In this document: piece after piece, positions 2,214 through 36,802 of the stretch
Position numbering within the stretch: position 1 is the first letter of the stretch
Layout: each line of letters begins with the position of its first letter
Source of the DNA: Candidatus Saccharimonadales bacterium
GTDB lineage: Bacteria > Patescibacteriota > Saccharimonadia > Saccharimonadales > JAUPVS01
Direction of reading: 5' to 3'
DNA: 47,628 nucleotides
NCBI GenBank assembly: GCA_039920385.1
Contig: JBDSDR010000019.1
Coordinates: 1-47,628, forward strand
Position numbers and translations under genes: made by a program
The notes under the pieces: model-generated
What the model was told of the DNA's origin: nothing
Database searches by the model: none
Seen by the model: only the letters and a program-made list of their open reading frames with translations

Positions 2214-3003
2214 TAACGTCTTCCGCAAAACAATTTACGAAAAGCGCTGGTTCTTGCTGTCTTGGTCGCTTGGTATTATTGCCATGACCATACTAACGAT
2301 GATTTTCTACCCCTATTTTAAGGACGCGGGTTTTGATGAGTTAATCAACAGTCTACCTAAGTCATTTGAGGGTCTCTTGGGTGAAGCTAACAATTACCGA
2401 ACAGTTGGCGGCTATGTGGGCGAGCAGATATTCGCTATGCGCCTGCCGATGCTAGTTTTAATTATGGTAATTACCCTATTTACTGGCATTGGTGTTGGCG
2501 ACGAAAACCGCGGCAACCTAGAGACCTTGTTAGCCCAACCAATTTCGCGGGCAACTGTTTACTGGCACAAGTTTTTGGCAGCTTGCCTAATTACAGCGAT
2601 TGCCTGTGCGGCAATTTTTGTAGCGGTTTGCCTTAGTTTTATTAGTATCCACGACACCATGAACCTCACTCGTCTAGCCGAAGCCAGCCTTGCTTGTTGG
2701 CTGTTAGGTGTAACTGTTGGCGCCTTTACCTATGCTATCGGTGCCATCAGTGGTCGGCGCAGTTTAACAATCGGTTTGGCCAGTGGTATTACCTTTTTAA
2801 GCTTCCTAATTAGTTCGATGGCGCCAGCCGTCGCCGGACTTAAGCAAGTTCAGAAATTATCTATCTTCTACTACTACAATACCCCCGCGGTAGCTCAACA
2901 TGGCCTGCAGTTGCGCAACACTGTGGTACTAGTGGGGATTAGTTTATTCTTTGTTCTGGTTGGTTTAGTCGTCTTCCAACGACGCGACCTTGTACGTGAC
3001 TAA
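2206..3003 (+). CDS. ABC-2 type exporter permease
   Basis: About 6 TM helices, DENRGNLETLLAQPISR loop, C-terminal FQRRDL. ATG 2206 overlaps the ATPase stop. Confidence 0.85.
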   Translation: MLSNVFRKTIYEKRWFLLSWSLGIIAMTILTMIFYPYFKDAGFDELINSLPKSFEGLLGEANNYRTVGGYVGEQIFAMRLPMLVLIMVITLFTGIGVGDENRGNLETLLAQPISRATVYWHKFLAACLITAIACAAIFVAVCLSFISIHDTMNLTRLAEASLACWLLGVTVGAFTYAIGAISGRRSLTIGLASGITFLSFLISSMAPAVAGLKQVQKLSIFYYYNTPAVAQHGLQLRNTVVLVGISLFFVLVGLVVFQRRDLVRD

Positions 3004-3280
3004 CTGGTAACCAGCCAAACTGGCGGCTATCGGTACTCTTTAAAGGATTATCGCCCAGCAAATATATCTGACCGTCTTTGACATCTTGGATTCGTTTAAT
3101 TTTCTCTAGGCCATTATGGTGAACTACAACCACACTGCCTGGTCGTGGTTTAGCCCAGCGCCAGACCACTACAAGTTGACCGTTTAACAGCGTTGGCTCC
3201 ATGCTTCGGCCGCTAACCCGCCGAATGGCAAACGGCAGTTTAGGCTTTTTTGGTTTCTGTAAAGATTGCGGCGATGTCAT
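2939..3280 (-). CDS. sodX: Nickel-SOD maturation protease (S26 signal-peptidase-like)
   Basis: VSGRSMEPTL (catalytic Ser), IKRI (Lys), GDN..STDSRQFG; immediately downstream of sodN. Start uncertain (ATG 3280 or TTG 3283). Confidence 0.85.
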   Translation of the reverse strand: MTSPQSLQKPKKPKLPFAIRRVSGRSMEPTLLNGQLVVVWRWAKPRPGSVVVVHHNGLEKIKRIQDVKDGQIYLLGDNPLKSTDSRQFGWLPVSHVQGRVVGRRLNQPEQRIN

Positions 3281-3626
3281 CAATCATGTCCAAAAGCTTT
3301 TGACCCTCTTCTGGGTTGACTGACTTTTTACAGTTACCGGCTTGCTTGGTAGCCTGCCAAAATTTATCGTGCAAATCGGGGTACTTCTCGAGGTGCTCCG
3401 GTTTAAAGTAATCTGTCCATAGCACCCACAAGTGATGTTTAACTAGTTCGGCACGCTGCTCTTTAATAATAATGGCGCGGATCTTATCTTCTTCATGTAA
3501 ATCTGGACCATACTTGTCCATAATCGCCTTGACCGACTCAGCCTCAATGCGAGCTTGGGCCGGATCGTAGACACCGCATGGCAAATCGCAATGCGCGTAA
3601 ACTGGTTTTATAAATGGTAGTTTCAT
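3240..3626 (-). CDS. sodN: Nickel superoxide dismutase precursor
   Basis: Ni-hook HCDLPCGVYDP after an 11-aa propeptide; conserved VKHHLWVLWTDYFK helix. Confidence 0.95.
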   Translation of the reverse strand: MKLPFIKPVYAHCDLPCGVYDPAQARIEAESVKAIMDKYGPDLHEEDKIRAIIIKEQRAELVKHHLWVLWTDYFKPEHLEKYPDLHDKFWQATKQAGNCKKSVNPEEGQKLLDMIDDIAAIFTETKKA

Positions 3627-8213: not shown

Positions 8214-8690
8214 ATGGGTTATGCCTTTCCCGAGAAGCGACCAGCTATAGATTATCCCGATGTTGATTGGGACGCCGCTGGGTCAGAAATTGGTGCTAAA
8301 TATAACGGTATGCAATCTGCCGAATTATTAGGAATTGCCCTCGAACCAGCTGCTCTAGCAGATGCTGACTTATTTGAGCACGACATCAGCAGCGATCCTC
8401 TTGGACAAGGCTCTAGTGATGGTGAGCACTTTAACCACCGACAAGCTGTAGCCGGTGAGCTAGAGCAAGTTGTTGCCCACAAAGTCTCTGGTCGTAAGCT
8501 TATAGCTGGAGCTTTATTGGTGATTTCTGGCATTCTACTTACCAGCGACGGGCTAGTTAGCGCCGCCGAAGAACCAGTTCGCACAAACGACGCTTGTGCC
8601 GAAATAGTTAGTCAATCGCCAGTCTTTAACCCAACCGATGCCTTAATAAAACTTAGCGATTGCCGCCAAAAACAGGTACTGGACCGTTAA
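8214..8690 (+). CDS. Hypothetical protein with one hydrophobic segment
   Basis: ORF with TATAAT 9 nt before ATG 8214; LIAGALLVISGILL TM-like stretch. Confidence 0.6.
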   Translation: MGYAFPEKRPAIDYPDVDWDAAGSEIGAKYNGMQSAELLGIALEPAALADADLFEHDISSDPLGQGSSDGEHFNHRQAVAGELEQVVAHKVSGRKLIAGALLVISGILLTSDGLVSAAEEPVRTNDACAEIVSQSPVFNPTDALIKLSDCRQKQVLDR

Positions 8691-11563
8691 GCAGCCACAA
8701 AGCTAACTAATTTGCCCGGCACGTAGATAGTCTTCTTTACAGTTTTACCATCTAGGTAACTAGAGATTTTTTGGTCAGATTTAGCCGTCTCAATAATCAT
8801 TTCTTCGGTACTGTCAGCTGGAACTTCAACTTGGGCCCGAACTTTGCCATTAACCTGCACGACGATTGTCATAGTATCGGCAATCAGGTACTTTTCTTCC
8901 CAAGTCGGCCATTGGCTGGTGTGAATAGTTTGCTCGTGGCCCAACTGCTTCCAAAGTTCTTCGCTAATATGTGGAGCGTACGGTGCCAATAGTTGCAGTA
9001 GGGCTTTTAGTGCAAACGGCCATTCTTTGGAGGCAAATTTATCTTCGGCTTTAATTTTATACAATTCGTTAACGAATTCCATCAAGGCGGCGACGGCCGT
9101 GTTAAAGCTCATTTGATGCAGGTCTTGGCTAACTTTCTTAATTGCCTTATGGGTAGCCGTGGCTAACTTAGGGTTTAAAGATTCGGATTTGCTATCTGCC
9201 TCGAGATACTCTTGAGTCAAAGTCCAAACCCGTTGCAAGAACCTAAATGTCCCGCCGATGCCCTCTGGGCTCCACGGTGTGGTTTGGTCGTAGGGTGCCA
9301 AAAAGACAATTGATAGACGCAAAGCATCAGCACCATAGCCCTGCTCAAGAATTTCGTTCGGGTTAACAATGTTGCCCTTACTCTTACTCATCTTAGTGCC
9401 ATCAGCCGCCAGAATAATCCCCTGGCCTCTTCGCGACGCATATGGTTCTGGGGTCGGTACTAGGCCTTGATCGTAAAAGAACTGGTGCCAAAAGCGCGAG
9501 TAAAGTAAGTGCAAGGTGGTGTGTTCCATGCCGCCCAGGTACATGTCGACTTCGCCCCAATATTTTAGCTTTTCTTTATCAGCAAAAGCCTTGTCGTTGT
9601 GGGCATCGTAATAACGCAAGTAATACCAAGAAGAACCGGCCCAGTTAGGCATAGTGTCGGTTTCGCGCTTAGCATCACCGCCACACTTAGGGCATTTTAC
9701 GTTCACCCAATCGGTAATCTCGGCTAATGGGCTTTGCCCATCGTCAGTTGGTTCGTAATGCTCGACTTTTGGTAGTACCACCGGTAATTGATCTTCGGGT
9801 ACTGGCACAGCGCCGTCTTTTGGACAGTGAATTATTGGAATCGGTTCACCCCAATAATGTTGGCGACTAAAAATCCAGTCCCGCAAACGGTAGTTAATCT
9901 TTTCTTCGCCATTTCCTGCCTTAACTAAGTCAGCCACAATTTTGTCGCGAGCTTCGCTCGAAGGCATACCGTTGTACTTGCCAGAGTTGATCATTTGGCC
10001 TTCGCTGCCATATGCATTTGGCTGAACCAATTGCAGGTAGCCATGTAAATGCGCTTCATCGGTGATAGTGTTTGAGATCTTGCTTTCGGCGACCCATTCC
10101 AATTTAAATTGACCTTCGTTGTCATCGAGGTTTGTTTCGACCTGCGCTTCATCAACGAGCTCAAACAGCATCGGCAAGAAACGTGCTTTGTAATTTTTGT
10201 TCTTCACATTTGAAAAGAAATAATTATTTACGTAGCTGGCTGATGTTTTAATATGCTTAAGATTGGTATAGCCTGTTTCTTCGGTAATTTCGCGAACGGC
10301 ACAATCAATTGGGTCTTCGTCCTTTTCGATACCACCACCAATAAAAAGATTGCCGCCCCAATTATCGCGTCGAGGTCCCCAGTTCAGCACTAGAACTTTT
10401 TTGGTCTTTGGATTGCGAACGATAGCAATAATAGCTTCTTTATGAGTCTCGTCACCTTGTATCTTTCCAAATTCCGGCTCAATCACTTCGTTAATTGGCA
10501 GCTCAAACTTTTGGGCAAATTCGTAATCGCGCTCGTCGTGAGCCGGTACGGCCATAATAGCGCCAGTACCGTAGCCGGTTAAAACATAGTCGGCAATCCA
10601 GACCGGAATTTTTTTACCATTCACCGGGTTAATGGCATGTGCGCCGGTAAAGACACCGGTCTTTTCGCGGTCGGTGTTTTGACGCTCAATTTCGGATTTG
10701 CCCTGGGCAGCCTTTATATAACTGTTTACGTGGGGCTTTTGCTCGGCACTCGTAATTGATGCTACTAGTGGGTGTTCTGGCGCCAATACCACAAAGGTGG
10801 CACCAAATAAGGTATCGGGGCGAGTTGTAAAAACTCGGATCTTGTTGCCGTCTTCTAGAGCAAAATCAACCTCAGCACCCTTGCTGCGGCCAATCCAGTT
10901 AACTTGCTGGTCGGCAATTCGGCTAGGGTAATCAACGTCTTGCAAGCCGTCAATCAAACGGTCGGCGTACTTAGTGATAGCCAGCATCCACTGTTTTAAG
11001 GTCTTTTTCTCAACCAAGGTGTCGCAGCGTTCGTGGCGGCCATTAACGACCTCTTCGTTAGCTAGACCGGTCTTACAATGTGGGCACCAGTTAATGGCGA
11101 CTTTGTCTTGGTAAGCTAAGCCCTCTTTAAAGAATTGTAAGAACAGCCACTGCGTCCATTTGTAGTAGTCCGGGTCGGTTGTTCTAAAAGAGCGGTCCCA
11201 GTCGATGCTATAACCTAACGAATCAAATTGCTTTTGAAAGTTGCCAACATTGCGCTCAGTAGCCACTTGGGGGGCAATTTTGTTTTTAATGGCGTAGTTT
11301 TCGGTCGGCAAGCCAAAAGCATCGTAACCCATCGGATAGAGAACGTTATAGCCATGTTGGCGCTTGTAACGCGCCATGACATCGCCCAAGGTGTACTCAC
11401 GCACATGACCAAGGTGTAAACCATCACCTGACGGATACGGAAATTCGGTCAGCACAACATATTTAGGCCGAGTTTTGTCAAAGTCGACAGCCTTGTACAG
11501 CTTGTCGCTAGCCCAAGTTTTTTGCCACTTAGGTTCGAGGTCTTTGGGATTATAGCGCTTCAT
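8687..11563 (-). CDS. leuS: Leucine--tRNA ligase with inserted Nudix domain
   Basis: HIGH-like PYPSGDGLHLGH, editing motifs FTTRPDT and GTGAIMAVPAHDERD, RLRDWIFSRQHYWG, KMSKSKGN, C-terminal VQVNGKVR. Contains a ~150-aa insert with a perfect Nudix box. Confidence 0.97.
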   Translation of the reverse strand: MKRYNPKDLEPKWQKTWASDKLYKAVDFDKTRPKYVVLTEFPYPSGDGLHLGHVREYTLGDVMARYKRQHGYNVLYPMGYDAFGLPTENYAIKNKIAPQVATERNVGNFQKQFDSLGYSIDWDRSFRTTDPDYYKWTQWLFLQFFKEGLAYQDKVAINWCPHCKTGLANEEVVNGRHERCDTLVEKKTLKQWMLAITKYADRLIDGLQDVDYPSRIADQQVNWIGRSKGAEVDFALEDGNKIRVFTTRPDTLFGATFVVLAPEHPLVASITSAEQKPHVNSYIKAAQGKSEIERQNTDREKTGVFTGAHAINPVNGKKIPVWIADYVLTGYGTGAIMAVPAHDERDYEFAQKFELPINEVIEPEFGKIQGDETHKEAIIAIVRNPKTKKVLVLNWGPRRDNWGGNLFIGGGIEKDEDPIDCAVREITEETGYTNLKHIKTSASYVNNYFFSNVKNKNYKARFLPMLFELVDEAQVETNLDDNEGQFKLEWVAESKISNTITDEAHLHGYLQLVQPNAYGSEGQMINSGKYNGMPSSEARDKIVADLVKAGNGEEKINYRLRDWIFSRQHYWGEPIPIIHCPKDGAVPVPEDQLPVVLPKVEHYEPTDDGQSPLAEITDWVNVKCPKCGGDAKRETDTMPNWAGSSWYYLRYYDAHNDKAFADKEKLKYWGEVDMYLGGMEHTTLHLLYSRFWHQFFYDQGLVPTPEPYASRRGQGIILAADGTKMSKSKGNIVNPNEILEQGYGADALRLSIVFLAPYDQTTPWSPEGIGGTFRFLQRVWTLTQEYLEADSKSESLNPKLATATHKAIKKVSQDLHQMSFNTAVAALMEFVNELYKIKAEDKFASKEWPFALKALLQLLAPYAPHISEELWKQLGHEQTIHTSQWPTWEEKYLIADTMTIVVQVNGKVRAQVEVPADSTEEMIIETAKSDQKISSYLDGKTVKKTIYVPGKLVSFVAA

Positions 11564-16863: not shown

Positions 16864-17115
16864 ATGGCAGCAGGCGATCAATTACGAAACGCAGCCAGTA
16901 GTGCCAAAATGGCCGCTACCGACAAACGCAAGCAAATACTCAACGTCCGTGACACCGTCGAAAAAATGAAGCGTGACATGGAACATCTCCAAAAAACCGC
17001 TGATGAATGGGAAAAACAAATTAATGATCTAGAAAACCAGGTTAGAAACCTCGAACAACAAGCTCGCCAGGCTGACGATGCCGAAAGGCGCATGCGCGAG
17101 GCCCAACAGCAATGA
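16864..17115 (+). CDS. Small coiled-coil protein
   Basis: GGAGG SD; heptad-like E/K/Q/R-rich sequence; ATGA overlap with the next gene. Confidence 0.75.
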   Translation: MAAGDQLRNAASSAKMAATDKRKQILNVRDTVEKMKRDMEHLQKTADEWEKQINDLENQVRNLEQQARQADDAERRMREAQQQ

Positions 17116-17429
17116 GCCTAAAGGCTTACCAAAAACAGATTGACGATATGGTCCAAGGGCTCGAAAAGCCCTACTGGAGCCCCCTAAGTATTATGGCGCG
17201 TATGAGTGAAGAAGTTGGCGAAGTCGCCCGCATTATCAACCATAAGTTTGGCGACAAACCCAAAAAACCCACCGAAGAACACGAAGATCTGGCCGATGAG
17301 TTAGCCGATGTTATGTATACCGTACTTTGCATGGCCAACAGTCAAGGTATCGACCTCGACCCAGCCATGGAAAAGGTTATTGCCAAACTAAGTACCCGCG
17401 ACAAAGACCGTTTCAAAAAGAAAGCCTAG
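17112..17429 (+). CDS. MazG-like nucleotide pyrophosphohydrolase (YpjD-type)
   Basis: YWSPLS..ARMSEEVGEVAR...ELADV..: ExxE...ExxD metal motif. Confidence 0.9.
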   Translation: MSLKAYQKQIDDMVQGLEKPYWSPLSIMARMSEEVGEVARIINHKFGDKPKKPTEEHEDLADELADVMYTVLCMANSQGIDLDPAMEKVIAKLSTRDKDRFKKKA

Positions 17430-17438
17430 CCCCGCCCC

Positions 17439-17467
17439 TTGAGTAAAAGGCTGTTTTCTAGTAGAAT
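17439..17467 (+). promoter_or_regulatory. Sigma70 promoter of tRNA-Phe
   Basis: TTGAGT-17 nt-TAGAAT. Confidence 0.65.
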
Positions 17468-17481
17468 AGCGAGGTTAGCGT

Positions 17482-17557
17482 GGCTCTTTAGCTCAGTTGG
17501 TAGAGCAACGGATTGAAGCTCCGTGTGTCCCCAGTTCGAGTCTGGGAGGAGCCACCA
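17482..17557 (+). tRNA. tRNA-Phe(GAA)
   Basis: GGCTCTT...AGGAGCC-A-CCA; anticodon arm ACGGA-TTGAAGC-TCCGT. Confidence 0.95.
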
Positions 17558-17578
17558 ATTTTAGGCTGACATTAAATG

Positions 17579-17598
17579 AGGGCAAAGGCCCTTTTTTT
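17579..17598 (+). terminator. Terminator after tRNA-Phe
   Basis: AGGGC-AAAG-GCCCT followed by TTTTTT. Confidence 0.65.
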
Positions 17599-17603
17599 GT
17601 ATT

Positions 17604-18992
17604 ATGGCACAACTCGCTCCCGACCAACCACGTATCATGGGCTCCGAAATGGAGTACGGTTTAATTTCTTATGACAAATACGATAGTCTGCTAATGGATT
17701 GGCCAGGCAAAGATACCTTTCGACTCGGCCTGCCAAAAAGCTACATCCAGAGGAGTTTGTTCTTAGCCAATGGCGCTCGCTTTTATATCGATGTCGGTAA
17801 CCACCCGGAGTACGCTACCCCGGAATGCAACGATCTGGATGATCTAATTGCCCATGAATTTGCCGGTGAGGCAATTGCCTACCAAACTTTTAGTCAAATT
17901 GCCGCCAAAGACAACACCCCAGTTGAGCGCTTTAGGCTCAATAAGAGTGTGGTTGATGATAATGATAACTACTGGGGCTACCACGAAAACTACCAATCGG
18001 CTGGTATCGAACAAAAGGCTTTTCGAGAAAATGTCGTCCCTTTACTAGCAATTCACATTGCCACGCGAGGCAGTTTATTTGGGGCCGGCCACGCTGGAGT
18101 ACAGTATCAAACCACCCAGAAAGGCTTAGCGGTTCGTACTTTAACAGATGGCGCCGCTAATTCGATTGACTCACGACCTTTAATCGACAGCAACCGCTCG
18201 GAACCTCATGCCGACGGCGAAGAATGGCGCCGCATCCACATAACATCTGGTGACCCTAACATGTTGCCCTGGCCAACCTGGATGAAATTTGGCACCACCT
18301 CAGTTGTCTTACGCATGATCGAAGCTGGTGTTAATTTAGATGATCTGCGCCTTGCTCAACCGGTCGAAGCCGTCCATACGGTTAGTCGTGATACCGACCT
18401 AAAAGCCAACCTGTCACTAAAAAACGGCCGTAATACGACGGCCTTAGAGATTCAGACCGAACTAGCCAAACGGGCCGCCAAGTTTGCCGAAAGTCACCCC
18501 CTAAGCGATCAAGAAATGGATGTTATCCAAGAATGGCAAGCTGCTTGTGCCGACCTCCAACAAGATTCCGATCTCTGTTATGGTCGAGTCGAATGGGTAA
18601 CCAAGCAAACTGTTTTGGCGGCCTTTACGATGCGCAACCAAATAAGCTACGAAAGTCCAAAACTAAACCTGCCAATCAACTTATGGACCAACCTCGACCC
18701 TAACCAAAAGGGCGGCGCCCGAAAACTACGTAACAGTGGTCTACTACCAAAAATGCCAACTGCCGAGGCTATCGAATACGCCATTAACCACGCCCCGGCC
18801 ACCCGGGCAAGCCTACGTGGCCGTGTCGTATTGGCGCTCTGTAAAGCCAATATGCAGGGGGTAGTAAATTGGGCGAAAATTAATATTTCTAACGAAGACT
18901 ACGACTTACCCGACCCTAGCCAAACCGAAAATCCCGAAATCGAAGAACTGATTAGAAAAATTCTGGCTGAGGCCGAACCAGCCCTTGCATAA
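17604..18992 (+). CDS. pafA: Pup-protein ligase PafA-like (Pup ligase/deamidase, glutamine-synthetase fold)
   Basis: RIMGSEMEYG, FLANGARFYIDVGNHPEYATPEC, YWGYHENY, SRPLID..R.EPHAD, RRIHI..GDPNM, MKFGTT, EW.TK, P.TRA.LRG, VNW. These are colinear with actinobacterial PafA; there is no Dop loop. Confidence 0.85.
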   Translation: MAQLAPDQPRIMGSEMEYGLISYDKYDSLLMDWPGKDTFRLGLPKSYIQRSLFLANGARFYIDVGNHPEYATPECNDLDDLIAHEFAGEAIAYQTFSQIAAKDNTPVERFRLNKSVVDDNDNYWGYHENYQSAGIEQKAFRENVVPLLAIHIATRGSLFGAGHAGVQYQTTQKGLAVRTLTDGAANSIDSRPLIDSNRSEPHADGEEWRRIHITSGDPNMLPWPTWMKFGTTSVVLRMIEAGVNLDDLRLAQPVEAVHTVSRDTDLKANLSLKNGRNTTALEIQTELAKRAAKFAESHPLSDQEMDVIQEWQAACADLQQDSDLCYGRVEWVTKQTVLAAFTMRNQISYESPKLNLPINLWTNLDPNQKGGARKLRNSGLLPKMPTAEAIEYAINHAPATRASLRGRVVLALCKANMQGVVNWAKINISNEDYDLPDPSQTENPEIEELIRKILAEAEPALA

Positions 18993-19105: not shown

Positions 19106-19181
19106 GCGGGTGTAGCTCAGTTGATAGAGCGCTTCCTTGCCAAGGAAGAGGCCAGGAGTTTGAGTCTCCTCACCCGCACCA
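19106..19181 (+). tRNA. tRNA-Gly(GCC)
   Basis: GCGGGTG...CACCCGC-A-CCA. Anticodon arm CTTCC-TTGCCAA-GGAAG; A19/U56 and A73. Confidence 0.93.
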
Positions 19182-19188
19182 AAGAAAC

Positions 19189-19217
19189 AGTCCTAGCTTG
19201 CCTAGGGCTTTTTCTTT
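19189..19217 (+). terminator. Terminator after tRNA-Gly
   Basis: AGTCCTAG-CTTGC-CTAGGGCT followed by TTTTCTTT. Confidence 0.7.
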
Positions 19218-19355
19218 GGTCATGGATAAGACTTAAACTCCAGCCCGCAGGGCGAGTTTGATAATTGGAAGCTCTCGCAGAAGCTTGCTTCGAGAAAGCT
19301 GAACAATTTCCGGTTTGTCTCCTTGCGACACGATTGAAATACAAATCTATACTAC

Positions 19356-19385
19356 TTGACATGATACCCCCGGGGGGTATACGAT
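19356..19385 (+). promoter_or_regulatory. csoR promoter with CsoR-type operator between -35 and -10
   Basis: TTGACA-18 nt-TACGAT. Perfect inverted repeat ATACCCCC-G-GGGGGTAT (19364-19380) matches C/G-tract CsoR operators; ATG 6 nt after the -10. Confidence 0.85.
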
Positions 19386-19391
19386 AAGACC

Positions 19392-19676
19392 ATGATTACA
19401 GAATTAAAGAAACGTGCACTGCACCGTGCCAAGATACTAGAAGGTCAAATGCGTGGTGTCCAAAAAATGATTGAGAACGAAGATTATTGTATGGACATAC
19501 TTACGCAAAGTCTGGCCATCCAAAAATCTATCGGTTCACTTAATAAACTAATACTCGAAAATCACATCCGTACCCACATCAAAGAAAGTCTTAGTTCCGA
19601 TTCAGAAAAAGCCCAACAACAAGCTCTTGAGGAGTTATTGGGTTTATATGAGTTATCAAATATTAGAAGTAAATAA
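19392..19676 (+). CDS. csoR: CsoR/RcnR-family metal-sensing repressor
   Basis: R.K.LEGQ.RG...M.E...YC.DIL.Q..A...ENH; operator directly upstream. Confidence 0.88.
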   Translation: MITELKKRALHRAKILEGQMRGVQKMIENEDYCMDILTQSLAIQKSIGSLNKLILENHIRTHIKESLSSDSEKAQQQALEELLGLYELSNIRSK

Positions 19677-19686
19677 GGGGGTCATC

Positions 19687-20121
19687 ATGAATAAAGAAAA
19701 TCTAATGTTTGGGGTAATCGGATTGCTTTTAGGCGTTGTAATTGCAGGTTTTGCTGCCGGTCAAGCTGTAAATAATAACCATACCGGACTGATGGGTATG
19801 ATGGGTATGAACACTTCAAACAAGCAACAAGTTGCAACCGATCATAGCACCATGTCTATGGCTGATATGAGCAAGCAACTACAAGGTCTAAACGGTGATG
19901 ATTACGACAAAGCCTTTATCGAAATGATGATTGATCACCACGAAGGCGCCGTTGATATGGCCAGGCTTTCAGACACTAGCGCAAAACACGATGAAATAAA
20001 ACAACTCAGCAAAAACATCATCGTAGCTCAAGAAAAAGAAATTGCCGAGATGAAGCAATGGCAACAAAATTGGGGCTATTCCAGTAACGAAATGATGAAT
20101 ATGATGCATAGCGGCCACTAG
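19687..20121 (+). CDS. DUF305 (ferritin-like, CopM-type) Met/His-rich exported metal-binding protein
   Basis: N-terminal TM; DKAFIEMMIDHHEGAVDMA...IIVAQEKEIAEM. Confidence 0.85.
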   Translation: MNKENLMFGVIGLLLGVVIAGFAAGQAVNNNHTGLMGMMGMNTSNKQQVATDHSTMSMADMSKQLQGLNGDDYDKAFIEMMIDHHEGAVDMARLSDTSAKHDEIKQLSKNIIVAQEKEIAEMKQWQQNWGYSSNEMMNMMHSGH

Positions 20122-20122
20122 A

Positions 20123-22120
20123 ATGGATCACTCACAGCACAATCATCAAGACCACGACAAACACGCTGGTCACTCAGTAGCTATGTTCAGAGACAAGTTT
20201 TGGCTTAGCCTCATCCTGACTATACCCGTTTTGGCTTATTCCGAGATGATACAAGATTGGGTAGGCTTCACGCCGCCAGTCTTCCTTGGTTCGCAATATG
20301 TACCATTCGTGTTTAGTACCATCATCTTCTTTTATGGTGGGTTAGTCTTCATCAAGGGCGCTGTAGCAGAAATAAGATCTAGATTACCGGGTATGATGAC
20401 GCTTATCAGCCTGGCGATTATCACGGCCTATACTTACAGCGTTGCAACCCAGTTCTTTATAAGTGGCGACGGTTTCTTTTGGGAACTGGCTACACTTGTA
20501 ACCATTATGTTACTAGGGCATTGGCTCGAAATGGCCTCGGTTGCCAAGGCCGAAAACGCCCTTGATGCAATTTCTAAATTACTCCCCGATACAGCCGAAA
20601 AACTAGTAGACGGTAAGCCCAAACAGGTGCTAGTTAGTGAACTAAAAGTTGGCGACCTAGTATTAATCCGACCTGGTTCAAGCATACCTGTTGACGGCCT
20701 AATTGTTGACGGCAAATCGGCTGTTGACGAAGCGGCTATTACTGGCGAAAGCAGACCCGTAAGCAAAACCGCGGGTGATGAAGTCATTGCTGGCACTGGC
20801 AATCAGGACGGTTCACTAACTGTAAAAGTTACAAGGCTTGGTCAGGACACCGCCCTGGCTGGCATTATGCGGTTAGTGGCCGAGGCCCAAACCTCAAAGT
20901 CTAGCGTCCAAGTGTTAGCTGACAAAGCGGCTTTTTATCTGACAATTGTCGCCATCGCCACAGCGATTGTCACATTCATATATTGGCTAATAGCCAAGGA
21001 CGCAAGTTTTGCGCTAGAGCGGTCGGTAACGGTACTGATAATTGCTTGTCCGCACGCCCTTGGCTTAGCTATCCCACTCGTGGTGTCTATATCTACTGCC
21101 TTATCGGCTCGCAATGGTTTGCTGGTTCGCAAACGGCTAGCCCTAGAGTCGGCCCGAAAACTAGACTGGGTCTTGTTTGATAAAACCGGCACTTTAACCA
21201 AGGGTGAACATGGCGTTACTGATATTTGGGCAACTACTGGCTACAGCAAGGAAGATATTCTGCACCTAACTGCTAGCCTTGAGCAAAACAGTGAACATAT
21301 TGTCGGTAAAGGTATTGTCCAAAAAGCCGCAGAGCAACACGTCCATCTAGATAAAGTTAGCAATTTTAAGGCCTTACCTGGCCTCGGGGTTCAGGGCACA
21401 TTACATGGCAAAGACACCTTTATTGCCGCTAGCTACCGCTATATTGAAGAAAACAAGCTGACCGTTCCGGCCGAAATAGCAACCGCCGTTAAGCAAGCTG
21501 CTAAGCAAGGCAAAACCGAGGTGTACTTGATCACCAATAAAAAGGTCGTTGGTGCCTTAGGGCTAGCCGATATCGTACGAGACCAATCAAAACAAGCTAT
21601 CAAAACACTCAAAGAAATGGGAATAAAGACGGCGATGATTACCGGCGACAGTGGCGAAGTTGCTGCTTACGTGTCGAAGCAACTCGGTTTAGACCAATAC
21701 TTTGCAGAAGTTAGGCCAGAAGATAAAGCCGCTAAAGTCAAAGCATTGCAGCAGGATGGCCAAAAGGTAGCCATGGTTGGCGATGGTATCAACGATGCGC
21801 CTGCCCTGACGCAAGCCGAAATTGGCATAGCCATTGGTGCGGGTACCGATGTAGCCATAAAATCGGCGGATATTATCTTAATAAAAAATGATCCGCAAGA
21901 TGTTGTAAAGGTGATCAACTTGTCAAAAGCGACTTACAAAAAGATGCAGCAAAATCTGGCCTGGGCAACTGGCTACAATATACTCGCCATACCATTAGCC
22001 GCTGGCGTGCTTTATGGAGTGGGTATTGTTTTGGCGCCCGCTGTTGGTGCAATTCTGATGTCGGTTTCAACAATTGTAGTGGCTTTCAATGCCCAGCTAT
22101 TAAGAAGCACAAAACTGTAA
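20123..22120 (+). CDS. copB: Copper-exporting P1B-3 type ATPase
   Basis: His-rich N-terminus, [33 protein letters not shown] and MSVST. Confidence 0.93.
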
Positions 22121-36421: not shown

Positions 36422-36802
36422 TTATCGTGAAGTGCTAAGTCGCTGGTTATCGAGTATGGTGGTAACTAAATAATTAACCAAGCCAATTACCATACCGGCC
36501 AGCATGGCAGCTCCAAAGTTGCTAACCTGCAGCGGAGAATAAAGCTTACTAGCTAGTAGTACCATTAAGCCGTTTATAACAATCATAAATAACCCCAGGC
36601 TAAACAAGATGGCTGGTAATGACAAGATGACCACAATTGGCTTAATTATAGTGTTGAGTATGGCCAGCAATAGCCCCGAGATAACTAGAACCGGTGCGCC
36701 ATTTTCGAAGATAATTCGGCCTCCCAAAAAGGCGGCCGCAATCCACAGCCCCAAAGTACAGACAAACCAACGAAGTAAAAATCTACCAATTGCAGTGTTC
36801 AT
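36422..36802 (-). CDS. YvlD / 4-TMS 'phage holin family' membrane protein
   Basis: LN.IIKP...LSLP....SLGLF..VING motif. Confidence 0.85.
   Translation of the reverse strand: MNTAIGRFLLRWFVCTLGLWIAAAFLGGRIIFENGAPVLVISGLLLAILNTIIKPIVVILSLPAILFSLGLFMIVINGLMVLLASKLYSPLQVSNFGAAMLAGMVIGLVNYLVTTILDNQRLSTSR

Follow-up and report, generated by a model that had tools for sequence, protein, structure and literature searches.

A tRNA-Phe-linked Pup ligase family gene of a Saccharimonadales bacterium belongs to a lineage outside the PafA-Dop pair

The ligase gene and its predicted active site

We analysed a 47,628-nucleotide stretch of DNA, hereafter the window, which is contig JBDSDR010000019.1 of the Candidatus Saccharimonadales bacterium assembly GCA_039920385.1, and we describe here a gene of the Pup_ligase family (PF03136), the family of PafA and Dop. 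This gene, called the ligase below, is present in a single copy, occupies 17604..18992 on the plus strand and reads, from an ATG start, as a full-length open frame of 462 aa. It stands between two tRNA genes found on the same strand by a tRNA scan, tRNA-Phe(GAA) directly upstream (17482..17557) and tRNA-Gly(GCC) directly downstream (19106..19181). The space between tRNA-Phe and the ATG holds a terminator-like hairpin (17578-17593) with a T-run (together 17578..17603, plus strand; a consensus match only), and this T-run stops a few bases before the ATG. The nearest plus-strand promoter-like site (17439-17467) lies 5' of tRNA-Phe, and no Shine-Dalgarno sequence was seen before the ATG of the ligase. 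The original prediction, which preceded this analysis, had placed a 462-aa open reading frame (ORF) between these tRNAs, just after a terminator, and had described its composition as that of the window; the coordinates were exactly confirmed, and the GC content of the ligase region (0.478-0.499) lies within the range of the window (0.409-0.510).

The ligase matches PF03136 over residues 45-426 with an E-value of 1.4e-90 and 304.9 bits, for a cut-off of 25. In HMMER alignments it is collinear with Corynebacterium glutamicum PafA (4b0t) over its full length (residues 10-458, E 1.8e-56), while Dop chains align from residue 51 only. Dop is about 39 residues longer between strand beta-1 and the catalytic Asp, and thus the Dop loop is absent from the ligase; the PafA-like spacer after beta-1 that had been proposed from the sequence is borne out by this alignment. 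The stretch that reads YIDVGNHPEY in the ligase is YVDH-AHPEY in Dop. D63 of the ligase aligns with D64 of 4b0t, a position that is N in the Pup-PafA complex entry 4bjr.

The motifs of the predicted active site could be followed along the gene, on the plus strand, in an alignment of 58 family members. Strand beta-1 (G13-S-E15-M-E17-Y-G19; 17640..17660) carries the nucleotide/metal motif GhExE, named as such by Hecht et al. (PMC7947786; here and below, statements on that paper refer to the portions of its text used in this work), with E17 invariant and G13 and E15 conserved in at least 90% of the sequences. The stretch Y61-IDVGNHPEYATPE74 (17784..17825), covered by positions 9-15 of Table 1 of PMC7947786, contains the catalytic Asp63 and a PafA-like V64-G65 insertion; D63, E69 and E74 are invariant. 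In the active-site motif W124-GYHEN129 (17973..17990), H127 is invariant in all 58 sequences, and W124, G125, H127, E128 and N129 are invariant in the eight-member clade to which the ligase belongs (the window clade, defined below). The C-terminal stretch T400-RA-S-LRG406 ... W423 (18801..18872) has R401, R405 and W423 invariant. Every motif quoted in the original prediction is present in the translation: GSEME (G13-S-E15-M-E17), YIDVGNHPEY (from Y61), GYHENY (G125-YHENY), SRP...R.EPHAD (S190-RP...R198-S-EPHAD204), RRIH...GD.NM (R209-RIH...G216-D-P-NM), TRA.LRG (T400-RA-S-LRG) and VNW (V421-N-W423).

Thirteen columns are invariant among the 58 family members (E17, D63, E69, E74, H127, G160, G162, R198, R210, W311, R401, R405 and W423) and a further 22 are at least 90% conserved; the ligase carries the listed residue at all 13 and all 22. 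Columns kept in at least 18 of the 19 canonical PafA/Dop sequences number 65, of which the ligase retains 51 (the other 38 non-canonical rows retain 40-55), departing from them at, for example, positions 134, 173, 185, 195, 199 and 358. Within the window clade, whose members are only 33-61% identical, 70 columns are invariant and every catalytic motif is among them, a pattern that speaks for purifying selection on catalysis. From the 58-sequence alignment we obtained an AlphaFold2 model with a mean per-residue confidence (pLDDT) of 94.6 and a predicted template modelling score (pTM) of 0.94. It shows a glutamine-synthetase-like beta-sheet cradle followed by a C-terminal helical domain, and Foldseek placed it close to PafA (4bjr, TM 0.86) and Dop (5lrt, 0.87; 4b0r, 0.86), the next-best fold being YbdK/GCS2 at 0.47. 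As judged from its sequence, the ligase gene is intact and its predicted active site carries the full set of family-invariant residues.

Placement relative to PafA and Dop

The ligase scores far below the NCBIfam cut-offs of both canonical enzymes, with 264 bits for PafA (TIGR03686; cut-off 551.3) and 250.9 for Dop (TIGR03688; cut-off 492.3). The same was observed for all 32 of the other Saccharimonadales homologues tested, which fall below both cut-offs by far and for which the PafA and Dop scores mostly lie close together. Database representatives were labelled by these cut-offs; 91 of 133 proteins were scored, the other 42 being unlabelled representatives.

A quick tree (LG+G4, 88 rows) gathered the 22 PafA or near-PafA and 6 Dop rows into one clade with a support of 99, and the 33 Saccharimonadales and 27 unlabelled rows all fell outside it. 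In a more careful tree (LG+C20+F+G4, 45 rows), PafA+Dop was recovered at 100/99, PafA at 100/98 and Dop at 100/98, and the ligase joined seven relatives (P0002, P0003, P0122, L026, P0144, L021 and L022) in a clade of eight, the window clade, at 97/84. In an approximately unbiased (AU) test on 27 rows under LG+G4, forcing the window clade together with PafA cost 126 log-likelihood units (p-AU 1.5e-51), for a group that was named after the tree had been seen. A phylogeny against PafA and Dop had been proposed as a check of the original prediction, and in it the ligase does not group with PafA, the PafA+Dop clade excluding it. On these sequence comparisons, the ligase is not specifically related to PafA, wherever the root lies; it is a member of a Saccharimonadales-specific lineage that branches outside the PafA-Dop pair.

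The description of the ligase as PafA-type thus holds for its architecture, which has no Dop loop and shows the V-G insertion beside the catalytic Asp, and does not hold for its ancestry or for the PafA cut-off. A mixed picture was also obtained when the 23 rows that discriminate Dop from PafA in Table 1 of PMC7947786 were mapped onto the ligase through the HMMER alignment, a mapping that is uncertain in the alpha-loop: 9 of the 23 are PafA-like (F39, no Dop loop, F53, the V64 insertion, G65, A71, T72, G183 and S190), one is Dop-like (P73) and 13 are neither.

Pup and the ligase family in Saccharimonadales

The genome that contains the window (G000, in which the window is contig C19) amounts to 801,588 bp in 24 contigs and is 97.94% complete. 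A PafA-type ligase had been predicted to stand without pup/UBact, dop, mpa/arc or prcBA in the 47 kb, and none of pup, dop, mpa, prcBA or an integrase was found among the 49 of 50 window ORFs scanned, the remaining one being an 81-aa minus-strand ORF (19117-19362) that overlaps tRNA-Gly. The whole-genome search that had been suggested gave the same picture. PF03136 has one match in the genome, so the ligase is its sole PafA/Dop homologue; Pup (PF05639) and UBact (NF033388, taken here as the UBact accession) have no match at E<=10, the proteasome (PF00227) has no match, and the best Mpa/ARC (TIGR03689) hit, in a 630-aa frame, reaches 148 bits for a cut-off of 504.75. The only ORF ending in GG[QE] encodes a basic 37-mer, and a hidden Markov model of 17 saccharibacterial Pups, run with filters off on 31,054 stop-to-stop frames, gave a best E-value of 2.9. 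As a control, the C. glutamicum genome matches PF03136, Pup and Mpa, and does not match PF00227. The original prediction had also taken the organism for a Saccharibacterium, which agrees with a same-genus genome and with the nearest relatives of the ligase, all assigned to Candidatus Saccharibacteria or Saccharimonadales. None of the outcomes named in the original prediction as refuting it was observed. Most of the window is contained in one sequencing run, labelled rhizosphere metagenome, which may be the source sample itself, so that no conclusion on habitat is drawn from it; no RNA run was listed as containing the stretch.

The Pup-less state recurs in genomes with window-like ligases. A clade-specific profile was built from 15 saccharibacterial Pups, the divergent Pup of the congener G002 included, and this profile recovered Pup in 3/3 control genomes left out of its building (G297, G130 and G082). 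With it, no Pup was found at E<=10 in the genome of the window, at E<=1 in any of five other genomes (G049, G105, G037, G089 and G064), or in G198; a further blank, G113, is not counted among these seven, its ligase (L023) lying outside the window clade. Conversely, the window clade includes no ligase from the 11 genomes of the order in which Pup and a ligase match occur together; nine of their ligases were placed in the 88-row tree.

At the level of the order, PF03136 was found in 47 of 301 genomes, at least 10 of them with two or more matches; in a phylum-wide set of 301 genomes it was found in five, three of which belong to the order. Pup (PF05639 above cut-off) is present in 16 of the 301 order genomes, 11 with and five without a ligase match, which leaves, by the Pfam models, 36 ligase-only and five Pup-only genomes. 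The term orphan, used for the ligase in the original prediction, therefore fits its own genome, where it stands alone; it does not describe a singular case, the Pup-less ligase being a property of a lineage. The saccharibacterial Pups are canonical, with the ending ...LLDEIDxVLExNAExFVxxYxQKGG[QE], the last residue being Q or E. The proteasome (PF00227) occurs in 2/301 order genomes, neither of them ligase-positive, and none of five Pup-plus-ligase genomes has Mpa (TIGR03689) above cut-off. The Pup-only genomes are the mirror image of the window case: a canonical Pup without a PF03136 match was seen in G084 (L049:1498-1719, a single-contig genome), G082, G092, G224 and G244. As to the surroundings of Pup, it adjoins a rarA/mgsA-like AAA+ gene in four genomes (L016, L051, L017 and L069) and enolase in two (L049 and L054), and about 2 kb separate it from an FtsH-like gene in G126.

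Canonical Pup is thus encoded by relatives in the same order and even in the same genus, a point overlooked in the original prediction. In two congeners, G001 and G002, a GGQ-ending Pup gene (L007:1241-1444 and L008:1136-1387) lies directly upstream of the genome's only PafA/Dop homologue, which is 31% and 29% identical, respectively, to the ligase of the window. This cassette is located between a rarA-like gene and the gene of a 298-aa membrane protein; in the genome of the window the two flanking genes (C9:9705-10871 and C9:10849-11742) directly adjoin each other in convergent orientation, nothing intervening, and the rarA-like gene is inverted relative to G001. A Pup that ends in Gln normally requires deamidation by Dop before ligation. 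Since a GGQ Pup is accompanied by only one PafA/Dop homologue in these congeners, their single enzyme may do both the deamidation and the ligation.

The position of the ligase after tRNA-Phe is also shared. We scanned the loci of 12 relatives together with the window, and tRNA-Phe followed by a ligase on the same strand was found in seven loci: the window, L065 (G049), L066 (G105), L068, L006 (G037), L024 (G089) and L028 (G064). tRNA-Gly follows the ligase in L065, L066 and L068 as well, and in the other five loci scanned no tRNA lies near the ligase. This position is kept across several families of the order. A ligase-free form of the same backbone also exists (tRNA-Ala, coiled-coil gene, MazG, tRNA-Phe), in which the gap from tRNA-Phe to tRNA-Gly measures 78 nt in G013 and 3 nt in G016. 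An origin of the ligase from a mobile element was considered and found no support: around the ligase there is no att-like repeat of the tRNA-Phe 3' end, the window lacks an integrase, and its composition at the ligase is not unusual. Nor did the ligase match any family of PADLOC-DB when membership in a defence system was examined. The cargo after tRNA-Gly varies among genomes: read by eye, it includes a 498-aa candidate serine recombinase in G105 (L066:6533-8029) and a candidate cytosine DNA methyltransferase in G049 (L065:10290-11336), so that the site after tRNA-Gly looks like a variable-island site.

Upstream of tRNA-Phe, the window carries on the plus strand (16864..17429) an 83-aa coiled-coil ORF ending in QQQ (16864-17115) and a MazG-like gene (17112-17429). 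Both belong to the backbone and are probably not partners of the ligase, because they are kept beside tRNA-Phe with or without it. The coiled-coil ORF was tried as a Pup substitute and rejected: its homologues end differently (...AAQWG in L021 and L022, ...GMKY in L006), the gene adjoins MazG and tRNA-Phe in the ligase-free G013 and G005 too, and Pfam and PADLOC searches returned coiled-coil noise only. Orthologues of the MazG-like gene that are 67-75% identical occur in other genera and families (G016, G005, G013 and G006; loci L071-L074), and four congeners have only paralogues of about 30% identity; within the genus, therefore, the segment from tRNA-Ala to tRNA-Phe is not conserved.

Elsewhere, the window consists of ordinary chromosomal backbone, with genes for TrmD, S16, RNase III, NusB, LeuRS, Ddl, a Mur ligase, LigA, UvrC, UvrA and L25, and with a CsoR-DUF305-copper-ATPase set 3' of tRNA-Gly (19392-22120, plus strand). 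Three places on the minus strand are recorded here in their own right. The 958-aa LeuRS (8690-11563) has an unusual insertion, a NUDIX match at residues 374-496 (E 5.9e-14) right after the editing domain. At 2942-3626, a nickel superoxide dismutase (Sod_Ni, 2.4e-44), encoded in this very small genome, adjoins an S26/S24-type peptidase that is probably its maturation protease. A Phage_holin_4_2 family protein (2.5e-22; 36425-36802) is flanked by SecG and an M24 aminopeptidase, and its neighbourhood is otherwise free of phage genes.

The predicted partner, alternatives and known systems

The changes that set the ligase apart from the canonical enzymes were found in regions where a tag would be held. 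According to Hecht et al. (PMC7947786), it is the alpha-loop that distinguishes ligase from hydrolase, and PafA and Dop have two Thr and one Arg of this loop in common. In the 58-sequence alignment, the corresponding region of the ligase (T181-D204, TDGAANSIDSRPLIDSNRSEPHAD; 18144..18215, plus strand) has an unusual length, keeps R198 and lacks the Thr-Thr pair. This pair is missing throughout the window clade, the window reading AANS vs SSAT-TR in PafA and LET-T in Dop, and in the same region 'IINT-RDE' is replaced by 'LIDSNRSE'. The HMMER alignment, uncertain at this place, makes the alpha-loop about 5 residues shorter than that of PafA, and the AlphaFold2 model has no helix at residues 182-191. 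Among the residues typical of the PafA alpha-loop (H, W, E, G, S, S, A, R, S), again with an uncertain alignment, only G183 and S190 match and three positions are gapped.

A second region of interest is the modelled Pup-binding groove, a helical region at residues 323-381 (18570..18746, plus strand) delimited by the interface residues of a predicted complex. At 25 groove positions the mean pairwise identity within the window clade is 0.26 vs 0.39 for the rest of residues 300-399, as low a value being reached in only 2.1% of random draws; the same positions give 0.41 vs 0.35 in canonical PafA, where 82% of draws go that low. The Asp at window position 358, invariant in 19/19 canonical rows, is lost in five of the eight members of the window clade.

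Taking these observations together, we propose the following. Single PafA/Dop-type enzymes would form several old lineages in Saccharimonadales, and some of these would work with a self-encoded canonical Pup and without proteasome or Mpa; the lineage of the window would have kept catalysis and not the tag gene, its changes sitting where the C-terminus and the helices of the tag would lie. The chances seem to us about even that the ligase is an active carboxylate-amine ligase, possibly also an amidase, with a non-canonical peptide or protein partner. Such an enzyme would use ATP to form an acyl-phosphate on a carboxylate (in the family, the side chain of a C-terminal Glu) and would then pass the acyl group to an amine, probably that of a protein lysine. 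Hydrolysis of the bond so formed may be a further activity of the enzyme, given its place outside the PafA-Dop pair. The weakest step is the nature of the carboxylate partner, which would be an unrecognised peptide or protein and not a canonical genome-encoded Pup; it is to such a changed partner that the altered alpha-loop and the poorly conserved groove point. The outcome would not be proteasomal degradation. A more specific version, in which the tRNA-Phe-linked Pup-less ligases are working tagging enzymes whose tag is either a foreign Pup, from the actinobacterial host or neighbouring cells, or a new endogenous tag, appears unlikely on the whole.

Several points weigh against the proposal of a non-canonical partner. 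The contrast in groove conservation rests on 8 sequences vs 14, and the PafA/Dop family trees are unrooted. Among the 32 free-standing small ORFs of the genome that end in E or Q, no convincing alternative tag was found; examples are an acidic Pro-rich 86-mer (C20:57290-57550) and a 98-mer (C4:50875-51171). The seven Pup-less genomes are all draft assemblies (6 to about 50 contigs each), and a gene as short as that of Pup could escape notice in any one of them, although its being missed independently seven times seems unlikely. Finally, a modelled complex of the ligase with residues 30-66, the C-terminal half, of the canonical saccharibacterial Pup of G025 reached an ipSAE interface score of 0.79 (median of three runs), while the best control gave 0.01; the mark used for this score is met by 58/80 solved complexes and by 2/110 mismatched pairs. 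At least 87% of contacts were common to the runs and the pLDDT of the partner was at least 71, with the Pup C-terminus at E17 and N66-H67 and the Pup helices on residues 323-381. In the model, a Pup-like helix can thus still be accommodated by the groove. However, since PafA-Pup and Dop-Pup complexes have already been solved, the pass may reflect likeness only, and we take it as likeness to these solved complexes and not as a demonstration that the window copy binds Pup.

One alternative is that the ligase no longer takes part in protein tagging and acts on small molecules, as a carboxylate-amine ligase or an amidase (a gamma-glutamyl-amine synthetase, for example). Its superfamily includes glutamine synthetase and the GCS2/YbdK enzymes, the latter being the next-best structural matches, and the missing tag gene and the altered alpha-loop and groove would suit such a role. 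We nevertheless consider it distinctly unlikely: the model retains, with high confidence, the entire helical groove domain as well as the C-terminal domain, the fold is much nearer to PafA/Dop (TM about 0.86) than to GCS2/YbdK, and the complex model, possibly through likeness to the solved complexes, places a Pup helix in the groove.

It is very unlikely, in our view, that the ligase is the ordinary enzyme of a dispersed proteasome-less Pup system whose Pup either falls into a gap of the assembly or has diverged beyond recognition. The clade-specific profile was blank in this genome and in six further ones, yet it recovered all its controls; the only GG[QE]-ending ORF is the basic 37-mer; the pup-ligase cassette of the congeners is absent from the junction of its flanking genes; and the ligases of the Pup-plus-ligase genomes stay out of the window clade. 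These observations outweigh, to our mind, that relatives do have an unlinked canonical Pup (in G025 and G018 it is on another contig than the ligase), that the Pfam model missed the Pup of G002, that the genome is split into 24 contigs and that the modelled Pup complex passes, with the reservation on solved complexes made above.

The original prediction had raised a third possibility, that the enzyme acts on the Pup of an actinobacterial host, either in the host or after import, and redirects host protein turnover. Cultivated Saccharimonadales grow on Actinobacteria, as stated in the portion of PMC10633639 used here. Within the phylum, moreover, the family is concentrated in Saccharimonadales, genomes with window-like ligases are without a Pup of their own, and the groove is modelled (again, possibly through likeness to the solved complexes) to accept the C-terminal half of a canonical Pup. 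A partner that is foreign and conserved should, however, keep the groove conserved, and here the groove is less conserved, Asp358 is lost in most of the clade and the alpha-loop near the Pup C-terminus is altered. In addition, the protein has neither a signal peptide nor an N-terminal extension, as only about 9 residues precede the catalytic strand beta-1 (modelled from residue 12 on), and the housekeeping context shows no secretion or effector genes near the ligase. Use of host Pup is therefore highly improbable. That the ligase is a functionless relic of a decaying Pup system is hardly credible: the family is patchy (47/301), its Pup and ligase halves occur apart (five Pup-only and 36 ligase-only genomes) and broken copies are found elsewhere (in G102, for instance, as fragments with a stop codon), but the frame is full-length and open, the catalytic motifs are invariant across a clade of 33-61% identity and the position after tRNA-Phe is kept in several families.

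What emerges is an order of ultrasmall epibionts in which the ligase family occurs in about one sixth of the genomes, sometimes with a canonical Pup, with essentially no proteasome and with no Mpa in the six genomes tested, and in which one conserved branch has kept the catalytic machinery in genomes without any tag gene. If the partner of the non-canonical enzyme proposed here were a new endogenous tag, bacteria would have, besides Pup and UBact, a third tagging system of the Pup-like kind; if it were a foreign Pup, the epibiont would carry out cross-species pupylation, and this would be a new type of interaction between host and epibiont. Even an ordinary Pup hidden in assembly gaps would leave a documented minimal, proteasome-independent Pup system in the Candidate Phyla Radiation (CPR). 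Full-text searches returned no paper linking Saccharibacteria with pupylation or PafA. The relative P0008, identical to the G089 protein, bears the NCBI name 'PafA2 family protein [Candidatus Saccharibacteria bacterium]'; databases thus already record the gene, and the novelty appears to lie in the structure of the clade, in the linkage to tRNA-Phe and in the lack of Pup.

Compared with known enzymes, the ligase has in common with PafA (4b0t/4bjr) the GhExE motif, the catalytic Asp, HPEY, HENY, R..EPHAD, RRxH..GD, TRAxxRG and the stacking Trp, as well as the fold (TM 0.86), a full-length alignment and the lack of a Dop loop; it differs in an identity of only 30-32%, in its alpha-loop and in a genome without pup, mpa or prcBA. 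With Dop (4b0r, 5lrt and 9cku) it shares a TM of 0.86-0.87, a near-equal HMM score (251 bits), P73 and an alpha-loop modelled as a loop and not as a helix, as described for Dop (PMC7947786), whereas it lacks the Dop loop and reads 'DVGNH' where Dop has 'DH-AH'. The ligase also resembles the single-copy Planctomycetes homologues of both Dop and PafA, which Hecht et al. (2020, PMC7947786) used as the outgroup to root the Dop/PafA duplication. Compared by description only, these are like the ligase in having one copy per genome, about 30% identity to PafA and to Dop and a place outside the duplication, but they partly align with the Dop loop, which the ligase lacks. The homologue phyla named in the same portions of that paper are Actinobacteria, Nitrospirae, NC10, Armatimonadetes, Verrucomicrobia, Nitrospinae, Firmicutes, Proteobacteria and Planctomycetes, with no CPR among them. 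The lineage of the window, being outside the PafA/Dop split, offers natural forms with a single enzyme in which one could ask, with Hecht et al., how the ancestral enzyme, possibly a bifunctional one, acted.

Within the order, the cassette of the congeners G001 and G002 and the dispersed Pup-ligase sets share with the window a single PafA/Dop enzyme and the lack of proteasome and Mpa; their ligases, however, belong to other clades and are accompanied by an encoded GGQ or GGE Pup, and the locus of the cassette lies beside a rarA-like gene and not after tRNA-Phe. Pupylation is regarded as a pathway of Actinobacteria (and Nitrospirae) that is bound up with Mpa and the proteasome. The proteasome-less pupylation of Corynebacterium resembles the window case in having pupylation genes without a 20S proteasome, but Corynebacterium keeps both PafA and Dop together with Pup and ARC/Mpa, whereas the genome of the window keeps one enzyme only.

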